Source: Candidatus Collierbacteria bacterium (lineage in GTDB: Bacteria; Patescibacteriota; Microgenomatia; UBA1400; MFAQ01). Taken from it: a stretch of DNA of 64,000 bases. Position numbers and translations under genes: made by a program. The notes below the pieces were generated by a model, which was not told the origin of the DNA, did no database searches, and saw only the letters and a list, made by a program, of their open reading frames with translations. The stretch's first letter is position 1, and each line of letters begins with the position of its first letter. The stretch lies in contig CAISER010000025.1 in the NCBI GenBank assembly GCA_903884375.1, forward strand, positions 1,637 through 65,636, given 5' to 3'. Shown in pieces: positions 22,947 to 53,319 of this stretch.

Positions 22947-25007
22947 TTAATGACGGAATCGGTGGCGGGAGAAGTGTTTCGAATTTTGAGATTTTTTTTC
23001 TTGCCGTTTTTGGTGTTTCCCAAAATTACGAAATAGATCCGGAAGATAATCTTTTAACCAATCTTTTTTTACTTCCAAGCAGGTACAAGCAAAAGTTTTT
23101 CCTTGAGGGTTGATAAAGATTTCATTGGCCACTAAGAATGAACCTTTGGATGGATAGCTGTTGAAATAGACAGAGTTGGGATGAATATAAATGTTAGACT
23201 TGGTTCCATCAACTTTTTTATAATAAAATTTATCAGACTTTTGAATTAGATTGCCAATAAGACCAGCCGTAATTGCTTGATGAATGGCATCTTTTCTGAT
23301 AATCGGCTTAGTGTTGGGATCAATATTGATTTGATGGTTGGCTAAGACAGTCAAAATATCCAAACGAACGTTTTTGGCTTCTTCAAGAACTTTTTCGTTG
23401 AAATAATTTTGTTTTGCCCAATCGTCACTGTAACCACTGGCGGCATATGCTTTCCAAATATTGAGCAGAACAATAAAATCTGAGTCGTTATTATTGATAT
23501 ATTGATCATGAGCTTTGTCAGCGAGGATTGCCTGGGCAGCTTCTTGAGGTCTGATAAATAAATTTTTCCCATCTAGAAGAGAAGCAATTATGACTATTTC
23601 ATTGACACAATTTATTTTTGGATCTAACGATTCAATAATCATGCGACCCAAACAAGGTTCTACCGCCAACTCAACTAACCAATCGCCTATTTCGGTAATT
23701 TGGCCTGATTCGTCCAAAGCACCAAGAGAAGTAAGAAGATTTAGAGCTTGAATGAGATTCTCGCTGCCTGGGTGATCCATAAAATCAAAGTTTCCAACAT
23801 TTTCGATGCCGACTTTTTTCATTGCGAGAACAACTTGGGACAAGTTGGAGCGTTGAATTTCAGGCGTTTGATACTGAGGGCGGTGTTTTAAACTTTCTTC
23901 AGTAAATAATCGATAACAATAGCCTGGTGCAGTGCGACCTGCTCTTCCTTTGCGTTGCTCTAAACCACTTATGGCGTGTTCAATAAGTTCTAACTTTTCA
24001 ATCCCGGATTTTGGATCAAACTTTGTTTGTTTAATTAGTCCGGAGTCGATAACGTGAATAACCCCATCGATAGTTACAGAGGTTTCGGCAATATTGGTAG
24101 CAATAATTATTTTTCTTTTGGGTGTAATAGTAAAAATATTGTCTTGCTCTTCTGGGGGTAGCTCTGCATGAAGAGGAAGAATTTCGACATCTGAAGAGCC
24201 CAACATTGCTTCAATTTTTTCAACTGTATCAGCAATTTCCTTTTTACCTGGCATAAAAATGAGAATATCTCCTTCGAGTTTTTGGTCGATGATCATTTTG
24301 ACTTTTTCGGCAGCGCCTTTGGTAAAGTCATAGTTGTAGGGAATTTCATTTTCGTAAAATATTTTTACGGGATACATTTTCCCAGGAATTTCAACCGAGT
24401 TATTGTTATCCTTCATGCCAATGTATTCAGCAAATCTATTCCGCTCAATAGTAGCCGAGGTAACAATGACACGAATAGGATCAACTCCAGCACCCAAACG
24501 ACGTTCGTTGACATCTTTAAGAAGTCCAAGGCAGAGATCAATGTTCAAACTGCGCTCATGAGCTTCGTCAACCATGACAATGGCGTAGTCAGTGAGCAAT
24601 GGGTCAAATTGAATTTTCCTTAATAAAATACCATCCGTCATAAAAGTAATGTCGGTGTTGTCCGTTGTCATGTCTTCAAAACGAATATGGAAACCTACCT
24701 GATCACCAACTTCACATTGCATCATTTCGGAAACACGACTAGTAACACTTCTTGTGGCGATTCTTCTGGGTTGAGTAACTGCGATTCCCCCCTTAAGTTT
24801 GAGCTCGTTTCGAAGTTCAAGGAGAAGAGGCGGTAAACAAGTGGTTTTGCCTGAACCGGTTTCTCCGATAAGAACAAAGTTTTGATGCTGTCTTATTTCT
24901 TGACGCAATAAATTTCTGAGATTGGCGACAGGAAGCCTATCCAAATTTTCAAGAGCATATTCCGACGAACAAATTTGTCGATTAATAGTATTTATTTCAG
25001 GTTTCAT
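22947..25007 (-). CDS. DEAH/RHA-family ATP-dependent RNA helicase (compact HrpA/HrpB/DHX-like)
   Basis: Motif I GETGSGKTT, motif II DEAHER, motif III TSAT, motif V TNIAETSVTI and motif VI QRKGRAGR. These are followed by an HA2-like region (LGALDESGQITEIGDWLVELAVEP) and an OB-like C-terminus with a basic tail. Confidence 0.85.
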   Translation of the reverse strand: MKPEINTINRQICSSEYALENLDRLPVANLRNLLRQEIRQHQNFVLIGETGSGKTTCLPPLLLELRNELKLKGGIAVTQPRRIATRSVTSRVSEMMQCEVGDQVGFHIRFEDMTTDNTDITFMTDGILLRKIQFDPLLTDYAIVMVDEAHERSLNIDLCLGLLKDVNERRLGAGVDPIRVIVTSATIERNRFAEYIGMKDNNNSVEIPGKMYPVKIFYENEIPYNYDFTKGAAEKVKMIIDQKLEGDILIFMPGKKEIADTVEKIEAMLGSSDVEILPLHAELPPEEQDNIFTITPKRKIIIATNIAETSVTIDGVIHVIDSGLIKQTKFDPKSGIEKLELIEHAISGLEQRKGRAGRTAPGYCYRLFTEESLKHRPQYQTPEIQRSNLSQVVLAMKKVGIENVGNFDFMDHPGSENLIQALNLLTSLGALDESGQITEIGDWLVELAVEPCLGRMIIESLDPKINCVNEIVIIASLLDGKNLFIRPQEAAQAILADKAHDQYINNNDSDFIVLLNIWKAYAASGYSDDWAKQNYFNEKVLEEAKNVRLDILTVLANHQINIDPNTKPIIRKDAIHQAITAGLIGNLIQKSDKFYYKKVDGTKSNIYIHPNSVYFNSYPSKGSFLVANEIFINPQGKTFACTCLEVKKDWLKDYLPDLFRNFGKHQKRQEKKSQNSKHFSRHRFRH

Positions 25008-25120
25008 TTAGGCTGAATTAGATTAACATAAGAAGGTGAAAATATGTATAGGTGTTGTATATATGTATCTAGTGTCGTTAATTAATGATTGATGCGCTTG
25101 ACTGACGGAAAATACAAAAT

Positions 25121-25142
25121 AAGCGCCCAATTAAGGGCGCTT
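25121..25142 (-). terminator. intrinsic terminator downstream of the 61-aa gene
   Basis: AAGCGCCC-AATTAA-GGGCGCTT, a perfect 8-bp stem. On the minus strand it is followed by ATTTTGTATTTT. Confidence 0.7.
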
Positions 25143-25148
25143 TTTAAT

Positions 25149-25334
25149 TTATTCCGGTTCAGAAGGAAATTGAGCCGGGCAGTCGAATTGTCGAAAATCT
25201 GGTTTGGTTTCGGGGAGAGCCTGGTTCTTTGGTAACGATAACAAATCATCGTTACTGTTTTGGGAATTGGTGGCGGGTGCTGCTGGGGCAACGGGTTCGT
25301 TCTTTATAGATTTATTCGGTAGGCGTTTAGACAT
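25149..25334 (-). CDS. small (61 aa) Pro/Asn-rich acidic protein of unknown function
   Basis: The ATG at 25334 is preceded by the strong SD AAGGAGGT. Protein is MSKRLPNKSIKNEPVAPAAPATNSQNSNDDLLSLPKNQALPETKPDFRQFDCPAQFPSEPE. Flanked by its own promoter-like element and terminator. Confidence 0.6.
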   Translation of the reverse strand: MSKRLPNKSIKNEPVAPAAPATNSQNSNDDLLSLPKNQALPETKPDFRQFDCPAQFPSEPE

Positions 25335-25366
25335 TAATACCTCCTTAAGGTGCAAGATTTGGAGAT

Positions 25367-25375
25367 ATTTTAGCA
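25367..25375 (-). promoter_or_regulatory. extended -10 promoter element (TGCTAAAAT) for the 61-aa gene
   Basis: The minus strand reads TGcTAAAAT about 32 nt upstream of the ATG at 25334, downstream of the rpsG terminator. Confidence 0.4.
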
Positions 25376-25517
25376 CAAACACTTATTTGCTAGGTAGGAT
25401 ACAACACAATTTCCTTTTGTCTTTTTAATATCGCTCTCGGTGAAACGAATTATTTGATACATATATCCATAATAAACCCAAACATTTAACTAATCAATAC
25501 CGAATCAATATATAACA

Positions 25518-25541
25518 AAACACCCCGTTTCCGAGGTGTTT
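25518..25541 (-). terminator. intrinsic terminator after rpsG
   Basis: On the minus strand: AACACC-TCGGAAACGG-GGTGTT followed by TTGTTATATATT. It lies about 25 nt after the rpsG stop. Confidence 0.5.
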
Positions 25542-25565
25542 CTAATTATTCTATATATTATAGGA

Positions 25566-26041
25566 CTACCATCTAAAATGAGCGAAGGCCTTGTTACTTT
25601 CAGCCATTTTGTGTGTATCTAGCTTTTTCTTGATTGCTGAGCCTGTGTTTTCATGAGCTTCCATGACTTCAGCAGCAAGTTTATCAGCCAGAGTTCTGGT
25701 TGGGTTGTTGGATCTGGCCTTGGCAGCATTCAATATCCAACGAATAGCAAGTGAATCGCGACGCTCCGGACGAATGGGAGTTGGGACCTGATAAGAGGCT
25801 CCTCCAACACGACGAGAACGAACTTCAATGTTTGGTTTGACATTTTCGATAGCTTCAGAAAGAAACTCTAGGCCGTTTTTGCCTGATTTTCGGCAATGAT
25901 ATCAATGGCGGTATAAATTTGTTTGGCAGCAACTGATTTTTTGCCTTCGAGCATACAACCATTAATGATCTTGGATACCAACTCACTTCCGTAAATTGGA
26001 TCAAGTTGAATTTTTTTAGTTGGGGTTTTTTTTGATCTCAT
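25566..26041 (-). pseudogene. rpsG: 30S ribosomal protein S7 gene interrupted by a 1-nt deletion in an A4 run (probable assembly artefact)
   Basis: Manual translation from the ATG at 26041 gives MRSKKTPTKKIQLDPIYGSELVSKIINGCMLEGKKSVAAKQIYTAIDIIAE, then a premature TAG at 25870-25868. The adjacent frame continues KSGKNGLEFLSEAIENVKPNIEVRSRRVGGASYQVPTPIRPERRDSLAIRW...HKMAESNKAFAHFRW to the stop at 25566. The span is 476 nt (3n+2). Confidence 0.85.
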
Positions 26042-26046
26042 ATTTT

Positions 26047-26466
26047 TTATTTAGCAGGAGCTGGACGTTTGGTACCATATTTACTGCGACTGGTGCGACG
26101 TTTTTCAATACCGGCAGTATCAAGCTTTCCTCTTATAATGTGATATTTAACACCAGGTAGATCACGAACACGTCCTCCCCTGATCATCACGATACTGTGT
26201 TCGGCTAAATTATGGCCTTCACCCATGATGTAAGCTGTGACTTCTTGCTTATTTGATAGTCTGACACGAGCAATTTTACGTAGAGCCGAGTTTGGTTTTT
26301 TGGGAGTCATTGTTTTGACTTGAAGACAAACTCCAGCTTTTTGAGGAGATTGAGTCTCGACCATGCGCCGTTTGACTGAGTTAAAACTCTTACGAAGAGC
26401 AGTGGTTTTCACCTTTCGTGCACTAGTAAGACGACCCTTCTTGATTAATTGATTTGTTGTAGGCAT
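26047..26466 (-). CDS. rpsL: 30S ribosomal protein S12
   Basis: [13 protein letters not shown]-terminus and [18 protein letters not shown]. Confidence 0.97.
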
Positions 26467-26485: not shown

Positions 26486-29400
26486 TCAGATATTTTCGAT
26501 TTTTGCTCTCAGTTTGCTCGTGGGAACCAACCGACCAATAATAACGTTTTCTTTCATGCCAATAAGGTGATCTATTTTCCCTTGAACTGCGGAGTCAGTT
26601 AAAACGGAAGTTGTATCTTGGAAAGAGGCAGCCGAAAGCCAGGAATCAGTATGTAAAGCAGCTCTTATAGCACCAAGGATTAAATTGGTAGCGGTAGCCG
26701 GTTCTCCTCCTTGAGCGATAACGGCTTCGTTGGCCATTTCATATAAACCTCGACTAATAACATCTCCTGCGACCAAAGCCGTATCACCGACAGCATCAAT
26801 TCTGACGTAGTCACACATTTTGCGTAGAATAACTTCAAAATGTTTGTCATGAATACTAATACCCTGAGACTCATAAATGGATTGAATTTCTCCAATGAGA
26901 TAGTTTTGAGTTGTACGAAGGCCTTTAATCTTTAAGAGTTGTTTGATATCTACTCCTCCTGAGGCCAATTGAGTGCCAACAGAAATTAAGTCTCCGTCAG
27001 CAACTTTAAGCGACATGGCAAGAGGAATAAGATATTCTTTTCGATCTTCTTTGGCTTTGCTACTTGGAGTGATAGTAACCAAATTACCGTTTTCTGTTTC
27101 AACAACTTTTACTTTTCCAGAAACTTCAGCAATTGGAGCAACCAACTTGGGAGTTCTGACTTCCAATAATTCTGTTACGCGAGGAAGTCCTTGGGTAACG
27201 TCGACGCCTGCAGCACCTCCTGAGTGTTTGGTACGCATAGTGAGCTGAGTTCCAGGTTCACCAATGGATTGGGCGGCAATGACACCAACCGGATCGCCAA
27301 CAATGGCAAGAGAATTGGTGGCTGTGTTATGACCATAACATTTGGCACAGAGTCCAAAACGTAGCTTACAGGTTATCGGGGAACGAACTTCGACCTCTTT
27401 AACTCCAGCTGCTTCAATTGCGGAGGCAATTTCTTCTGTTATTAATTCTCCAGCATCAACCAGTACTTTTTTCGTCTCTGGGGCAACAACTTTTTTAACT
27501 ACATAACGATAAACAATACGTTTAGCAAAAATCTTTGGTCTTTCTTCTGAAGTTATTGTAATAAATTCATCAGTACCACATTCTTCGGCACGGATAATGG
27601 CATCATGGCTAACGTCGACCAAACGACGGGTTAAGTAACCTGCGTCGGCGGTACGAAGAGCTGTGTCGGTAAGACCTTTTCTTGAACCTCTAATGGAAGT
27701 AACATACTCGAAGATTGAAAGACCTTCGCGGAAGTTGCCTTTAATTGGAAGTTCAATTAAATTGCCTAATGGATCAGCAATAAGACCACGCATGGCGGAA
27801 AGTTGTTCGATTGAGTTTTTGGTAACACGACCGGAGGCAGAGTCAATAACTAGACGAATTGGATTAACTTTTGAGAACGTTGCCCAGGTTTTTTCTGCCA
27901 AATCAGAAGCTGTTTCTCGCCACATATTAATGGTTAATTTGCTTCTTTCACTGTCGGTTATCAAACCTTGTTTGTAGTTATCTTCAATTTCTTCGGCTTT
28001 TTTGTTTCCTGAAGAAATAAGTTCCGATTTTTGGGGATAAACTTCGTTATCGGAGATGGCAAATGAGAAACTACTGATAGTGGCATATTCAAAACCAATA
28101 TTCTTAACAGCGTCAATCAATTTAACAACACGTTTGGTGTCACAAGTTTTGATAGCGCGGGTGAAGAGGGCGGAAATTTCTTTACCGGTAAAACTCTTGT
28201 TCTGGAAATCCCATTCTTTGGGAAGAATGTGATTAAAGATAATACGACCGACGGTAGTGTTGGTCATAACCATCTGTTCCGGATCAAGACGAACATCAAT
28301 TGGTTGACGAACTTCTACAACTTTATTTTGATATGCGGTAATCGCTTCCGTTGGACTACCAAAAGGATATTTATAAGGAGTTAAAGTTTCATCAATTGAA
28401 GTGAGATAGTAAACACCAACGGCCATTTCTTTACGTGAAGGAATATTGACACTTTGTCCCGAAGAGGGTTTAAGAAGATTGAATTGGGGCAACATGAATT
28501 TTTTGGCCTCACGAATAGCTTTTTTGGTTAATGGTACATGAACAGCCATTTGGTCTCCATCAAAATCAGCGTTGAAACCTTCACAAACAACAGGATGTAA
28601 TCGAATAGCAGAGCCATCGACCAGTACAGGTAAAAAGGCAAGAATTGAAAGTTTGTGGAGTGTGGGAGCGCGGTTTAAGAGTATTGGATGTTTTTTGGTA
28701 ATTCTTTCCAAAATGTCGAAAACCTCAGGTTGACGTTTTTCGATGAGAGCTTTTGCAGCTTTGACGTTTGGCGCCAAGTCTTGCTTGATGATCTCGTGAA
28801 GAACAAATGGTTTGAACATTTCAAGAGCCATATCTTTGGGAAGGCCACATTGATTAAGTTTAAGTTCCGGACCAACGATGATAACGGAACGACCTGAGTA
28901 ATCAACACGTTTTCCAAGAAGGTTTTGACGGAAACGGCCCTGTTTTCCACGAAGCATGTCTGAAAGGGACTTGAGAGTTTTACCCGTTCTGGATCTTCTG
29001 GTAGAACGTGCCTGTGAAGAGTCAATTAAAGAGTCAACAGCTTCTTGAAGCATTCGTTTTTCGTTTCTTAATATAATTTCAGGAGCTCCAAGATCAATTA
29101 AATGTTTTAAGCGGTTGTTGCGGTTGATGACACGACGATATAAATCGTTTAGGTCGGAAGCAGCAAAACGACCACCCGAGAGCTGAACCATCGGACGAAG
29201 ATCAGGAGGAATAACAGGAAGAACTTCCAAGACCATCCATTCTGGTTTTACTTTTGAATCAAGAAGGCCTCTTACTACCTGAAGACGCTTGGTGGCTCTG
29301 ACACGTTTCGCTTCTGAGCTTGAGAGAGATTCTTCTTTAAGCTTGACGGCCATCTCTTCAAGATTAACTTTCTTAAGGGCGTCCAAAATTGCCTCTGAAC

Positions 29401-47193: not shown

Positions 47194-48255
47194 TCACCAC
47201 TTTGGTAGAAATGATTTTATATTTTCGGGCGTGAGAGATATTGTCTTGGCTTGACCGGTAACAATTAATAGAGCAACTTTACGGACAATACCTTCGATCG
47301 TGCGATTTAGGGTACGAATACCGGCGTCGTAACCTAGAGGACGAATAATCATCGGCCAGAGAGCAGGGTCAATGGTAATGATTGAGGGATCCATACCGGC
47401 GGCTTCCAAAGCTTTGGGGAATAGATATTCGAGGGCAATATGAGTTTTTTCATCGTCGGAGTAAGAAGGCATTTGAATTGGTTCCAAACGATCCATAACG
47501 GCGGTCGCTAAATTGCCCGTGTTGTTGGCCGTGGCGATAAACATAACTTCGGAAAGGTCAACGGGGTAATCAATAAAGTGATCGAGAAAACGATTGTTTT
47601 GCGTTGGATCAAGAAGCTCGACCAAAACACCCATAATATCAGCTCTGGCTTCTTCGGTAACACGGTCGATTTCATCCAGAAGAATAATGGGGTTTTTAAC
47701 TCCCGTATCACAAAGAGCTCTGACCACATAACCAGGTTCGGCTTCAAGATGTAGACGAGACTGGCCACGTAAGTCTTTAGCTGAACCCAAACCTCCAAAA
47801 GGAATACGGGCAATGGGGCGGCCAAGCGCTTCAGAGAGGGCATAAGCAAAAGTAGTTTTACCGGTACCAACAAGACCAACTAAGCAAACAATCGGAGCTC
47901 TCCCCGCTCCAAGGTTTCTGGTGGTACGGAGTTTTAAGATAGACATATATTCAAGAATTCGTTCCTTGACCTCGTTCATGCCGTAGTGATTTTTATCAAG
48001 TGTGGCCTTGATAGCAGTTAAGTCAATCGGGCGTTCGACTCTTTTTGTCCAAGGAACTTTGGCAACCCAAGAAATATAGTGGCTGATTTTTTCGTATTCT
48101 TCAGAAAAAAATCCTTGGGTGGAAAGACGCTCGAGACGAGCAATCATATCAAGAGTATTTTCTTTTAACTCTGGGGGTGTTTCGATACTTTCAATTTTTT
48201 GACGAAGATCATCAAGAAGAGTATTGGCTTTTGTGGTGATTGGAGCAGGATCCAT
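47194..48255 (-). CDS. stand-alone Lon-type AAA+ ATPase module (no LAN N-domain, no protease domain)
   Basis: Collinear with the Lon ATPase region: VPWTKR, HYGMNEVKERILEYM, Walker A GLVGTGKTT, Walker B IILLDEIDR, FIATAN, MDRLE and YDAGIRTL. The ORF stops (…SFLPKW) where Lon proteins continue into the Ser-Lys peptidase domain. Confidence 0.75.
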   Translation of the reverse strand: MDPAPITTKANTLLDDLRQKIESIETPPELKENTLDMIARLERLSTQGFFSEEYEKISHYISWVAKVPWTKRVERPIDLTAIKATLDKNHYGMNEVKERILEYMSILKLRTTRNLGAGRAPIVCLVGLVGTGKTTFAYALSEALGRPIARIPFGGLGSAKDLRGQSRLHLEAEPGYVVRALCDTGVKNPIILLDEIDRVTEEARADIMGVLVELLDPTQNNRFLDHFIDYPVDLSEVMFIATANNTGNLATAVMDRLEPIQMPSYSDDEKTHIALEYLFPKALEAAGMDPSIITIDPALWPMIIRPLGYDAGIRTLNRTIEGIVRKVALLIVTGQAKTISLTPENIKSFLPKW

Positions 48256-48367
48256 AGTTTCATTATATCCGTTTTAAAAAATACTTAGATCAGAATAAAT
48301 CACACACTCTATCTAAGAAAAGGATCTTTATCGAGGATATTATTAAATAGGGCTGCTGTTAATTTTA

Positions 48368-49363
48368 TTATCGAATATTGTAGGTTGGTGGCTTAGTGCT
48401 GCCGCTACCGGTGTTAATTCTGCACAAACTATCGTTAGTACAAGTGCTTTTAGGACATGTTGAGCTAATATTGACAGTTTTTGATATTGATTTACAAAGA
48501 TTGTTACTACATGTTTTGTAAATACAAACTTTTGTGTTTGCCACTCCTGATCCCACTGTCGAGCATTTACATGTAATGCTCCCATCTTTACAGGTACACA
48601 CTCTGCTCTTTGATTGTCCTGTTCCACAACCTAATGATGCCGGACAATTACCGGAACATTGATTATATGATTGACCGCTGGCAAAAGTATAACCATCACT
48701 GGTAGTGCAAGTGCCAGGCTTAATGATGGTACCGGCACAAGTATTATCATTTGAGCCTTTGCATGTACTAGTAGGACAGGTCGAACTTTGTTTAAAGGTC
48801 ATGTTATATGACTTACACTGACCCTGATAACACTGGGACCATTTACATTCTTTAGTCCCTGAGGGAACGGGCTCTTTATCGGCTATGCATTGGCCGACTG
48901 CGGAACTGGCGGTATAGTTTAAGGCAATTTTTCCATTACCACAGTGATAACCAGAGCAACACTGCCGGACATCATTCCAAGAAAAAACTCCACAGTGTCC
49001 ACCTTCTTCCACACACCTATTTGAAGTTGGTCGAGGTTTTTCAGTGCAATTCGATGGTTTACAGCTCGCGGTAAACGCTCTGCTCTCGCCTCCACCAGTG
49101 TAAGCGCAAATTTCTCCGGTTTTGCAGCCACCTTCCCAACCACATTTATTTGCGGTTGCCAGGCTGCTGCCACAAGTAACGTTTGCCGCTGCTGGTTCAC
49201 TTTCTGGAGCATTGGGGGCTACGGCTTGTCTGGCAGTTAATTGAGCAGCAATAAAAAGAACGGCACCAAGAATAGCAGCAAAAATTAAGACAGGAAAAAA
49301 CTTTTTCAAAAAAGGATTAGTATGCTGTTTGACAATCGTCTTCTTGGGCATCTTCTTGGCCAT
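48368..49363 (-). CDS. membrane-anchored/exported cysteine-rich protein (32 Cys) with internal repeats
   Basis: Basic N-terminus plus TM/signal anchor FFPVLIFAAILGAVLFIAAQL, then 32 Cys in about 270 aa. Two paralogous modules carry the pattern C..CKS.....T....SSTCP.STC. Confidence 0.6.
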   Translation of the reverse strand: MAKKMPKKTIVKQHTNPFLKKFFPVLIFAAILGAVLFIAAQLTARQAVAPNAPESEPAAANVTCGSSLATANKCGWEGGCKTGEICAYTGGGESRAFTASCKPSNCTEKPRPTSNRCVEEGGHCGVFSWNDVRQCCSGYHCGNGKIALNYTASSAVGQCIADKEPVPSGTKECKWSQCYQGQCKSYNMTFKQSSTCPTSTCKGSNDNTCAGTIIKPGTCTTSDGYTFASGQSYNQCSGNCPASLGCGTGQSKSRVCTCKDGSITCKCSTVGSGVANTKVCIYKTCSNNLCKSISKTVNISSTCPKSTCTNDSLCRINTGSGSTKPPTYNIR

Positions 49364-49409
49364 ATTAGTGTGAGTTAATTATTAATTAAATTAATTAACC
49401 TCTGTTTTA

Positions 49410-49437
49410 ATAATAACTGTTTTTTTGTAAAGGTCAA
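49410..49437 (-). promoter_or_regulatory. candidate sigma-70-type promoter of the Cys-rich gene
   Basis: The minus strand reads TTGACC (49437-49432), a 16-nt spacer, then TATTAT (49415-49410). It lies just downstream of the pnp terminator. Confidence 0.35.
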
Positions 49438-49444
49438 ATTAACA

Positions 49445-49469
49445 AAACGCCCCGAGAATCGGAGCGTTT
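49445..49469 (-). terminator. intrinsic terminator after pnp
   Basis: On the minus strand: AACGCTCCGA-TTC-TCGGGGCGTT (10-bp stem with one mismatch) followed by TTGTTAATTT. Confidence 0.65.
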
Positions 49470-49499
49470 ATTGCTAAGGCCTAACTTTATTATTCTACA

Positions 49500-51677
49500 T
49501 TAACGAGAGTCTCTAAAATTGCGGAAGTTTGGACGACCACCACCTCTTTGACCGCCTCGATCACCACCGCCAAATCTTGGCCTGTCTCCTCCGCCACCCA
49601 TAGGTCGCTGTGCTCTTATTGGTTCCTCGCCTTCTTTGAGCATGGTGAGATTTACGCGACCCATGGAGTCTACTTCGTAACATCTGACTTCAACTTTGTC
49701 GCCGATTTTCATTGTTTTGAAAACTTCTGGTTGGACTTGGGAAATATGAACTAAACCATCTTTCCCCGGAAGAATATTGACGAATGCGCCAAAAGCTTCA
49801 ACTCTAGCAACAGTACCTTGATAGGTCATGCCAACTTCGGCTTCGGCAACAATGGAATCAATGAAAGCTCTGGCTGCATCTACCTTGGATTGATCTGTAC
49901 CGGTAACGGTAACAGTACCATCATCTTCGATGTTGACTTCAACTAAGAAATCATCTTGGATTTGGTGAATGATCTTGCCACCTGAACCAATAACGTCACC
50001 AATCTTGGCAACCGGGACTTTGGTGGAAACAATTTTAGGAGCGTACTGAGATAGTTTTTCGCGTGGAACAGAAATGGATTCGACCATGAGGTCTAGAATC
50101 TTCATTCTGGCACGTTTGGCTTGTTCAACAGCTTGGGTTAGGACTTCGGCTTTGATACCCGTAACCTTGACGTCCATTTGGAGAGCGGTGATACCGTCTT
50201 TGGTTCCAGCGACTTTGAAATCCATGTCACCTAGGTGATCTTCGAGACCACAGATGTCGGTGAGGGTGACAAAATCTTTGCCTTCGGTAATTAGTCCCAT
50301 GGCAGTACCGGCAACAGGTTTTTTAATTGGAACACCAGCGTCCATGAGAGACAAGGTAGAACCACAAATTGAGGCTTGAGAAGTAGAGCCATTTGAAGAC
50401 ATAACTTCAGAGACAACACGAATGGTATACGGGAAAACGGCGGTGTCTGGAAGGACAGGAACCAAGGCTCTTTCGGCAAGATTCCCATGACCAATCTCAC
50501 GGCGACCTGTACCTGGGCGACCAACTTCACCGGCTGCGTAGCCTGGCATGTTGTAGTGATGCATATAGCGCTTGGTGGTTTCACCCTTCATACCATCGAT
50601 AAGCATTTCTCTGGCTGGAGAAGCTAGAGTAACAACCGAAAGTACATGAGTAAGTCCTCTTTGGAAAAAGGCAGAGCCGTGAGTACGAGGAAGCAAACCA
50701 ATCTCGATATTGATAGGGCGAATATCCTCGATTCCACGTCCGTCTGGTCTGGTTTTGGTTTCGAGAATGGTTTTTCTAGCCTCGTCACGAAGCATATGAT
50801 CAGCGGTTTCGGCAATGTGACTAGCATTGTATTCTGGATGAGCGGCGATAATGCCGTCGACGATTTCTCTAGCTTGGATTCCAGTTTTGGTAGCTTCGTT
50901 TTTCAAGATTACTTGAAGATCTCCAATTTCGGCGCTAACAAACTTTTTAATTTCAGAATCTATAACGATTTCAGGGATAGTACGTTTGGCTTTGCCGTTT
51001 TCTTTGGCAAATTTGTCAATTCCTTCGGCAATGATGTCGACATATTTTTGAGCGTAGGCAAGGGCGCCGGTCATCTTTTCTTCGGAAACTTCATTGGCTC
51101 CGGCCTCAACCATACAAATGCCCCCCTTAGGACCAGAAACGACAAGATCGAGAGGAGAAACAAGCTTTTCTTGCTCATTTGGGTTGATGATGTACTCACC
51201 TTCTGGGGTCATACCAACACGAACAGCACCAACCGGTCCGGCCCATGGATAGTCAGAAAGAGATACAGCAGCTGAAGAAGCAATAATGGCTAAAATTTCT
51301 GGCTCTTCGACTCCATCGATGGAGAGAGGATAAGACATGATCTGAACTTCATTTCTTGAAGCTTGATCAAACAAAGGACGGAGAGAGCGATCGATCACAC
51401 GACCAACAAGGATTTCACCTTCTGAAGGACGTCCTTCACGTTTTATAAAACGACTGGAAGAAATAACTCCACCTGCGTAGAATTTTTCTTGGTAATCAAT
51501 GGAAAGAGGAAAATAATCAATTCCTTCTTTAACTCTGTTTGTGGCTACTACTGAAGCAACAACTATAGTGTCGCCGCATCTTGCAGTAACAGAACCTGAG
51601 GCCTGGGCACCAAAACGGCCGGTTTCGATTGTAATTGTTTTACCATTGAGAACAATGGTAGTTTGAGGATGTGTCAT
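49500..51677 (-). CDS. pnp: polyribonucleotide nucleotidyltransferase (PNPase) with RGG-rich C-terminal tail
   Basis: Two RNase PH domains, KH motif IGDVIGSGGKIIHQIQ and an S1 domain. Start placed at the ATG at 51677 (MTHPQTT...), which is preceded by AAGGA. The track start is a GTG. Confidence 0.93.
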   Translation of the reverse strand: MTHPQTTIVLNGKTITIETGRFGAQASGSVTARCGDTIVVASVVATNRVKEGIDYFPLSIDYQEKFYAGGVISSSRFIKREGRPSEGEILVGRVIDRSLRPLFDQASRNEVQIMSYPLSIDGVEEPEILAIIASSAAVSLSDYPWAGPVGAVRVGMTPEGEYIINPNEQEKLVSPLDLVVSGPKGGICMVEAGANEVSEEKMTGALAYAQKYVDIIAEGIDKFAKENGKAKRTIPEIVIDSEIKKFVSAEIGDLQVILKNEATKTGIQAREIVDGIIAAHPEYNASHIAETADHMLRDEARKTILETKTRPDGRGIEDIRPINIEIGLLPRTHGSAFFQRGLTHVLSVVTLASPAREMLIDGMKGETTKRYMHHYNMPGYAAGEVGRPGTGRREIGHGNLAERALVPVLPDTAVFPYTIRVVSEVMSSNGSTSQASICGSTLSLMDAGVPIKKPVAGTAMGLITEGKDFVTLTDICGLEDHLGDMDFKVAGTKDGITALQMDVKVTGIKAEVLTQAVEQAKRARMKILDLMVESISVPREKLSQYAPKIVSTKVPVAKIGDVIGSGGKIIHQIQDDFLVEVNIEDDGTVTVTGTDQSKVDAARAFIDSIVAEAEVGMTYQGTVARVEAFGAFVNILPGKDGLVHISQVQPEVFKTMKIGDKVEVRCYEVDSMGRVNLTMLKEGEEPIRAQRPMGGGGDRPRFGGGDRGGQRGGGRPNFRNFRDSR

Positions 51678-51731
51678 CCTTAAATCCTTTCTTTTTCGCG
51701 CCACCCTTCTTGAGAAGAAAACAGAAGATAC

Positions 51732-51747
51732 CCAAGGACACCCTTGG
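51732..51747 (-). promoter_or_regulatory. hairpin in the rpsO-pnp intergenic leader
   Basis: CCAAGG-ACAC-CCTTGG, a perfect 6-bp stem, nested inside the outer complementary arms CTTGAG (51709-51714) and CTCAAG (51769-51774). Confidence 0.4.
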
Positions 51748-51775
51748 ACGGATATACTCTATTTACTCCTCAAGC

Positions 51776-52066
51776 TTATTTTGCTGAGTCGCGCAACTGA
51801 CTGTTAATGTTTAGAGACTTGGTAACTTCAAGATAATCTTTTGAATTGGATTTTAGAAGATAATTTAGGAGGCGGCGTCTTTTGGAAATAATCTTTAAGA
51901 GGCCACGTCTGGAATGATTATCTTTATTGTGAACTTTTAGATGATTGGTGAGTTCTTCGATTTGGGCAGTGAGAAGGGCAATTTGCACACGAGGAGAACC
52001 AGTGTCTTTGTCACTGGCAGCGAAGGATTTTATGATATCTACTTTTGTTTCGGATTTAAGAGCCAT
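51776..52066 (-). CDS. rpsO: 30S ribosomal protein S15
   Basis: [48 protein letters not shown]. Start placed at the ATG at 52066 (the track start is a TTG). Confidence 0.92.
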
Positions 52067-52131
52067 ATCGGGTTGTATTGTAACAGATGTATTTCGTTTT
52101 GCCAAGACTGAACTGTGCGTAAAGAAAAAAT

Positions 52132-52389
52132 TTAATCATCGGAATCAAGGTCTTTGTCTTTGGTTGGTTGAGATTTCCAGATACCACCCTTGTCTTCAGG
52201 CTCAACTGGTTCAAGTTCATTACCCCAGGCTCTAAACATTCTTACTTGTCTGGGGGTAAGTTTCCGGATCAAGACAACCCTTTCCCCTGTTTCGGGGACA
52301 ATCCCTGTTTCATAAGTACCGTCGGGTCCTTTTATCTTAAAAGGACGCGTAATATCGTCGTCTTGTTCGTATTCTGGTATTCCACCCAT
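52132..52389 (-). CDS. small acidic protein of unknown function (85 aa)
   Basis: ORF with an ATG start in the operon between the DHH-like gene and rpsO. I recognise no motif. Confidence 0.45.
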
Positions 52390-52404
52390 ATTAACTATAT
52401 TATA

Positions 52405-53319
52405 TCAACCATTGTCACCAACACGGAAGATTTTAGGTTTGTTCCAGTCTGCCGGGATTGAGGTACCAGCTTCATTGGTAGATAGGTTTTCTTCTTCCGG
52501 AAGAGGAATGTTTTCTTCGGTAGGAGCCGATGGAACATCGGGCACTTCAAAAAATGGCGCTTGGGAAAAACGAGGAGTTTGAACTTTTGTTTTTGGAAGA
52601 TGAGCACCGGAGCGCATAAGGAAAGCAATGGCTTCAAAGGTGTCTGCCGTTAGATTGCCTGTGGATAAATTATTGGAACTTTCGTAAATATTGGTTAATA
52701 GATTTTGAGAAACAGAAGTGTTTAGTTTTAATTTTAATTCCTTGAGAAGACCAATAACCAACTCAGAAAAAGAACCCATGTTTTTGTGATAAAGATTGCC
52801 GGTAAATGCGGCTGGTCGAAGAGTATTGTTGAGATTTAGAATGGTGGCATTATCCAAAAAGTTTTTTTCATCGGCATAAATTTTTCCTAATTCTTCGAGA
52901 GAATTAATACCAAGAGTAATGACTAAGTCGGCTTGAGCTCCTGAGTAAGAGTATTTAACACCGCCGATATCGGGAACGGGAGCACCAGTTTTGGGTTTTA
53001 CCAATAGATAAAATTTGCCGTCATCTCTGACATCGTAGTCAACTTTATCCAAATCTTCTTCACGATAATCAAAGGAGATAATTAAGTTACGACTACCAAT
53101 GGAGTCGGGGATGTTTTTTATACCATTAGTTTCGTCATCAACTTCGACTTCACTTCCACAACCGATTTGAGAAATTTTCCCTGATTGTTTTAGAGCAAGA
53201 TGAAGACTGATTCCGGCGGTAACAAGATCTTTTCCTGGATCGGGAGGAAGAATAATAATAATAGACTTGGCAGATTTAATTAAATTATTAACGTTTATTT
53301 CCGATTTGTTGTCTTCCAT
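52405..53319 (-). CDS. DHH-fold (NrnA-like) protein with all catalytic motifs substituted and no DHHA1 domain
   Basis: Collinear with the NrnA DHH domain, but motif I is PPDPGKD (for PDPD), motif II is ITLGINS (for VCDTAN), motif III is LNLNNT (for IDHH) and motif IV is YESSNNL (for VGDTGRF). The C-terminus is a Pro/Glu-rich tail. Confidence 0.55.
   Translation of the reverse strand: MEDNKSEINVNNLIKSAKSIIIILPPDPGKDLVTAGISLHLALKQSGKISQIGCGSEVEVDDETNGIKNIPDSIGSRNLIISFDYREEDLDKVDYDVRDDGKFYLLVKPKTGAPVPDIGGVKYSYSGAQADLVITLGINSLEELGKIYADEKNFLDNATILNLNNTLRPAAFTGNLYHKNMGSFSELVIGLLKELKLKLNTSVSQNLLTNIYESSNNLSTGNLTADTFEAIAFLMRSGAHLPKTKVQTPRFSQAPFFEVPDVPSAPTEENIPLPEEENLSTNEAGTSIPADWNKPKIFRVGDNG

Follow-up and report, generated by a model that had tools for sequence, protein, structure and literature searches.

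In dnaX, a programmed −1 frameshift takes place on A_AAA_AAG, flanked by an SD-like element upstream and a hairpin downstream, and yields a second, shorter product. A stop codon close to the site can promote shifting. Homopolymer runs are hotspots of genuine replication slippage and are also the typical place for length miscalls, and a systematic long-read homopolymer error would strike the longer runs first. Ribosomal protein S7, the product of rpsG, is a universal and essential primary 16S rRNA-binding protein in the assembly of the 30S subunit, and is included in the standard ribosomal-protein marker sets. The minimal site for a −1 shift is Z_ZZN, and the A/T runs at which bacterial transcription has been described to slip are about 9 long (Atkins et al. 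2016, PMC5009743). Frameshifted genes in the endosymbionts Buchnera and Blochmannia are rescued by transcriptional slippage at poly(A) tracts (cited in PMC5009743), and single-base deletions in E. coli test genes are suppressed spontaneously by −1 slippage, with an aggregate of 1-10% (Springstein et al. 2024, PMC10861913).

The rpsG gene described below is broken by the loss of one base from a short A-run, and we compare it here with the same gene in near-identical assemblies, in related species and with the systems above. The break is not a programmed frameshift, does not mark a pseudogene lineage and is no new kind of feature.

Structure of the interrupted rpsG

The window, that is, the whole 64-kb stretch of DNA that was analysed, has a G+C content of 40% and is densely packed with genes, nearly all of which are on the minus strand. 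The gene order around the break is rpoB, rpoC, rpsL, rpsG, a terminator-like hairpin, a small ORF, a DEAH-type helicase, fusA and tuf. The broken gene is therefore in the str-operon position, directly downstream of rpsL and with rpoB and rpoC farther upstream; 3′ of tuf there are S10-like, other ribosomal-protein-sized and secY-sized ORFs, all of them assigned from size and order alone. The closest named relatives of the S7 protein are from Candidatus Collierbacteria and the Microgenomates group, which belong to the Candidate Phyla Radiation. The features at and around the break are as follows.

25566..26041, minus strand: rpsG (30S ribosomal protein S7) with a 1-nt deletion, 476 nt versus 477
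25868..26041, minus strand: frame-0 part of rpsG, S7 residues 1-51 followed by NQAKTA and a premature TAG; product of 57 aa
25566..25889, minus strand: −1-frame part of rpsG, S7 residues 52-158 (KSGKNGLEF...AFAHFRW*), located by tblastn
25887..25890, minus strand: A4 run, one A short (plus-strand TTTT; A5 in the comparators, GCC GAA AAA TCA)
25876..25880, minus strand: A5 run two codons ahead of the TAG, with the frame-0 codons GC[A AAA A]CG; a Z_ZZN site of the minimal kind for −1 shifting
26047..26466, minus strand: rpsL (S12), undamaged, upstream of rpsG at a distance of 5 nt; an identical public protein carries PF00164
25517..25542, minus strand: intrinsic-terminator-like hairpin of 11 pairs with a GAAA loop and a T-rich tail, 24 nt past the rpsG stop

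Read on the minus strand from the ATG at 26041 to the stop at 25566, rpsG spans 476 nt, which is no multiple of 3. Frame 0 begins with MRSKKTPTKK and runs to AIDIIAENQAKTA, where it meets the TAG at 25870-25868; up to NQAKTA it reads MRSKKTPTKKIQLDPIYGSELVSKIINGCMLEGKKSVAAKQIYTAIDIIAE. The rest of S7 is found in the −1 frame, as KSGKNGLEFLSEAIENVKPNIEVRSRRVGGASYQVP...AFAHFRW*, and ends at the stop at 25566. By tblastn, residues 52-158 are recovered with 100% identity in frame −3 (25889..25569). With the repaired protein as query, the same program returns one copy of S7 from the window, the halves of which are in frames −1 and −3 and join at residues 52-61, and no second S7 copy was found within the 64 kb. 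One A added to the A4 run gives a gene of 477 nt and a 158-aa S7, which matches Pfam PF00177 (Ribosomal_S7) with E=1.5e-55, residues 1-151 being aligned to profile positions 1-148 of 148. The original prediction held that rpsG is split by a single-base deletion between 26041 and 25566 and that one added A restores a 158-aa S7. The frames, the TAG, the coordinates of the T4 run and the length of 476 nt were all reproduced, and the restored protein, besides its full match to PF00177, is 100% identical to the public protein P0001.

The rpoB-rpoC-rpsL-rpsG unit would end at rpsG, provided that the predicted hairpin downstream of it functions. We also noticed that the usual rpsL-rpsG-fusA order is broken up in this organism (window 22947-25542) by the hairpin, the small ORF and the helicase. 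The small ORF (25149-25382) encodes 77 aa and has no Pfam match, while the helicase, of 686 aa, is DEAH/HrpA-like, with DEAD, Helicase_C, HA2 and OB_NTP_bind. The order of rpsG, hairpin, small ORF, helicase and fusA is the same in the near-identical public contigs L001 and L004.

The break site in independent assemblies and related species

The DNA comparators comprise three ENA metagenome assemblies of the same strain from three samples (L001, L002 and L003) and two extracts (L004 and L008) of one Logan assembly, SRR22250822, whose strain is ~99.5% identical. All four assemblies with readable DNA at the site (L001, L002, L003 and L004) have A5, in the codons ATT GCC GAA AAA TCA GGC, and have in common the site sequence GCCGAAAAATCAGG. 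Against each of them the window shows a single gap, at 25887-25890. The alignments of L002 (4,572 nt) and L003 (1,071 nt) to the window contain zero mismatches, the sole difference being the 1-nt gap at the A4 run. Among the ENA assemblies, ERZ18643896 and ERZ18644181 from BUCK21-1 are the ones that match the window in all but this base. At the protein level, P0001, to which the repaired S7 is identical over all 158 aa, is found on 5 contigs, and P0002 is 99% identical to the repaired S7. Two further assemblies were compared through their gene tables: that of ERZ1426665 gives a 158-aa S7, and in that of ERZ1426820, which ends within rpsG, no stop has appeared after 68 codons, whereas the window has its stop at codon 58. 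An exact-product look-up in public assemblies found no record of the fragment products, whether of 57 aa or of 55 aa. An exact DNA scan of the GTDB species genomes and JGI metagenomes matched neither the A4 nor the A5 allele and is uninformative on A4 versus A5.

The species comparison covered 30 species-representative genomes of the Collierbacteria group, with S7 identities of 64-93%. In every one of the 30, S7 residues 1-158 are encoded in a single frame, and among the matches listed all 120 of 120 S7 relatives are intact, most of them with 158 aa. The codons at the break site differ from relative to relative (GAA CAA TCC, GAG CAG ACA, GAA AAA ACA and others), and the longest A-run at the site measures from 1 to 6 nt. 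What is conserved is E-[KQ]-[ST]-G, the motif of the repaired frame, and not any shift-prone motif; this conservation places the break in the GAA AAA run rather than farther downstream. The comparisons with strains and with relatives had been proposed in the original prediction, and the first found A5 in all four readable assemblies and two further gene tables open past the break, while the second found a frameshift at the site in 0 of the 30 species genomes.

One relative, L021 (CAYTOI010000023.1), was considered as a natural interruption of rpsG and rejected. Its S7 match spans 629 nt and contains an N run flanked by duplicated 55 nt (1560-1665); the scaffold gap together with the duplication is a scaffolding artefact, and accounts for the annotated S7 of 129 aa (P0116). 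Five further S7 entries are also 129 aa long (P0099, P0100, P0107, P0112 and P0120), and these may owe their length to damage of the same kind in their assemblies or to a start codon assigned to Met30.

The homopolymers of the rest of the assembly were checked over the 31.6 kb of the window that are covered by independent assemblies (20702-48216 and 49183-53247). Out of 738 runs of at least 4 nt, including 27 of 7-8 nt, 737 agree in length and the A4 run of rpsG is the sole discrepancy. The alignment to the Logan strain, of about 20.6 kb, has 218 substitutions and zero indels. With 1 of 738 runs discordant, any error here would be sporadic, not systematic, and as a one-off it is harder to tell from a genuine rare variant. 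No other broken genes are visible in the 64-kb window. The pair 40330-40677/40655-40954 and the region 51776-52220 were examined as candidate split genes and rejected, with the same two genes being present in the Logan strain and S15 being complete.

Several local differences between the window and the public contigs were observed at other positions. Roughly half of the 60 substitutions relative to L004 crowd into about 140 nt (window 25464-25602), a stretch that takes in the 3′ end of rpsG (the final ~12 codons, where most changes are synonymous and 2 lead to conservative amino-acid replacements) together with the terminator hairpin and the spacer. It has the appearance of a hypervariable patch or of a short tract of recombination. 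Around position 2288 of L001 (window 26614-26631, at the 3′ end of rpoC) a 10-N gap stands in place of 18 nt; this is a scaffolding gap in the public assembly and no difference in the organism. The ORF at 48368-49363 on the minus strand, which is cysteine-rich and has an N-terminal hydrophobic segment, encodes 331 aa in the window, against 182 aa in the Logan strain. The two products agree over their first ~60 residues, and about 970 nt are unalignable (window 48217-49182); the product varies between strains and is probably a surface or secreted protein.

Explanations for the missing A

The missing A is very probably a sporadic consensus error that arose in sequencing, assembly or polishing. 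The deletion is private to one contig, is situated inside a homopolymer, and has flanking sequence identical to that of independent assemblies. We infer an error, rather than a true mutation of the DNA that was sequenced, because S7 is essential and the sequence is otherwise identical. As S7 is essential, a frameshift allele is not expected at consensus frequency in a natural population, and, with the other same-strain assemblies from several samples lacking the deletion, an error in this contig is by far the likeliest explanation. A homopolymer-length error was also the preferred reading of the original prediction, and it gains support from the identity to P0001, from the A5 found elsewhere and from the 30 relatives, of which none is frameshifted. 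If so, this would be an otherwise ordinary and perfect rpsG of a Collierbacteria-like bacterium, from which one A of GAA AAA was dropped in this contig only, and the organism itself would have A5 and would make a normal 158-aa S7 without recoding. The break then matters for quality control only, the remedy being to restore A5 at 25887-25890 and annotate rpsG; left uncorrected, the gene could distort marker-gene or completeness counts.

It is unlikely, but deserves some weight, that the deletion is real and non-functional, namely a very recent loss of rpsG in a minority or dead-end genotype, or in a single amplified cell, that was taken as the consensus. Carriers of such an allele would be without a working S7 and would not persist. 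The zero accompanying substitutions fit the extreme youth that this requires, the homopolymer is a hotspot of slippage, and a random error is not especially expected when 1 of 738 runs is discordant; however, all same-strain assemblies, from several samples, have A5, and the universal and essential S7 has no second copy in the window, and it is improbable that a lethal allele would be found at consensus frequency in a metagenome.

We regard it as very improbable that the deletion is real and is compensated in expression, either by some ribosomes slipping to −1 or by RNA polymerase adding an A at the A4 run. The S7 frame is reachable by a −1 ribosomal shift or by one extra base in the mRNA, and a product of 158 aa would result by either route. 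The deletion site, GCC GAA AAT, offers no X_XXY_YYZ heptamer, and re-pairing there is poor, which confirms the original prediction that the junction is without a canonical slippery heptamer. The A5 run at 25876-25880, which lies 12 nt downstream of the A4 run, was overlooked in that prediction. Compensation would most plausibly proceed through tRNA-Lys on A_AAA_A in this run (GCA AAA ACG, 25876-25880), within ~10 codons that are open in both frames. The run fits the minimal Z_ZZN (PMC5009743) and has the TAG close by, and a −1 slip on it would give AENQAK-NGLEF, in which the length of S7 is kept and NQA replaces KSG at residues 52-54. In the intact alleles, however, the same five A are present unchanged (there as GGC AAA AAC), so the run has not evolved for shifting. 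It is accompanied neither by a tandem X_XXY_YYZ heptamer nor by a downstream stimulator, as no stimulatory fold was found in 25900-25800 (101 nt), for which the MFE is −19.6 kcal/mol and the mean of the shuffled sequences −19.4 kcal/mol (z=−0.05).

The route through RNA polymerase fares no better. The run at the site has 4 nt, its neighbour has 5 nt, and the longest A/T run in the window is 8 nt, against about 9 A/T in the bacterial cases of transcriptional slippage (PMC5009743); the earlier claim that A4 is too short for such slippage is borne out. As to the yield of a ribosomal shift, spontaneous −1 suppression of 1-10% in E. coli test genes (PMC10861913) counts in favour of such a rescue, but this level is far too low because S7 is required once per ribosome; the protein is needed stoichiometrically, and a yield of a few percent could not sustain ribosome synthesis. 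The two-frame layout of rpsG is also absent from all relatives compared (0 of 30 species, 0 of 4 near-identical assemblies and 0 of 2 further gene tables), including every same-strain assembly, and no description of rpsG recoding was found in the surveyed literature that names both 'rpsG' and 'frameshift'.

Still more doubtful is the fuller version of this rescue, in which a living Collierbacteria-like strain does carry the A4 allele and full-length S7 is made only through an uncommonly efficient, unstimulated −1 slip of tRNA-Lys at A_AAA_A, or through correction at the RNA level. If A4 is real, the peptides IIAEKSGK / SGKNGLEFLSEAIENVK would mark RNA-level correction, IIAENQAKNGLEFLSEAIENVK would mark the −1 slip, and IIAENQAKTA the C-terminus of a truncated protein. 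A slippage rescue would mean that, in a Candidate Phyla Radiation bacterium, the gene of a core ribosomal protein undergoes a corrective frameshift, and a deletion that was both real and fixed would be a rare instance of an essential ribosomal protein dependent on corrective frameshifting; no finding here favours the latter.

Beyond an artefact, a non-functional mutation and a rescue by slippage, we leave almost no room for any other explanation. There is a negligible chance that S7 is made as two polypeptides, the 57-aa N-terminal fragment and a separately initiated C-terminal one: both halves have open reading frames, but the −1 frame is without ATG, GTG or TTG from the upstream TGA to the TTG at 25733, for which reason the sole C-terminal ORF has only 55 aa and is missing residues 58-103, the conserved core that includes ...RSRRVGGASYQVP..., and the gene is split in no relative. 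Reassignment or readthrough of the TAG was rejected, as the sequence that follows it belongs to another frame; the 61 long ORFs of the window end with TAA in 50 cases, with TGA in 8 and with TAG in 3. A decaying pseudogene was likewise rejected, the gene having 0 substitutions and only the 1-nt gap relative to the intact alleles of L002 and L003; with no other change, either the deletion arose extremely recently or it does not exist.

Comparison with known systems

The programmed −1 frameshift of dnaX resembles rpsG in its lysine-codon A-run and in the direction of the shift, which is −1 in both. The rpsG gene has neither the tandem heptamer nor the stimulatory hairpin, and its two-frame layout is not conserved. 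The two would also differ in outcome, as the shift in dnaX leads to an extra, shorter product whereas a shift in rpsG would give the only functional one.

Corrective −1 frameshifting and the suppression of deletions (Atkins et al. 2016, PMC5009743; Springstein et al. 2024, PMC10861913) come nearer in layout, with a 1-nt deletion, a short stretch that is open in two frames and a Z_ZZN before the stop. In rpsG, by contrast, the deletion is known from one contig and is accompanied by neither conservation nor a stimulator, and the reported yields fall below the demand for S7. The transcriptional slippage of Buchnera and Blochmannia is similar to the present case in that a needed gene of a reduced-genome, symbiont-like lineage has an indel in an A-run; the tracts there are long, whereas the intact allele here has a run of 5 nt and the window one of 4 nt.

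Homopolymer errors in metagenome-assembled genomes differ from the present case in that the run is short here (from 5 to 4) and no other such discrepancy occurs. They share with rpsG the private single-base change in length that breaks an essential gene, the gene being intact in relatives.
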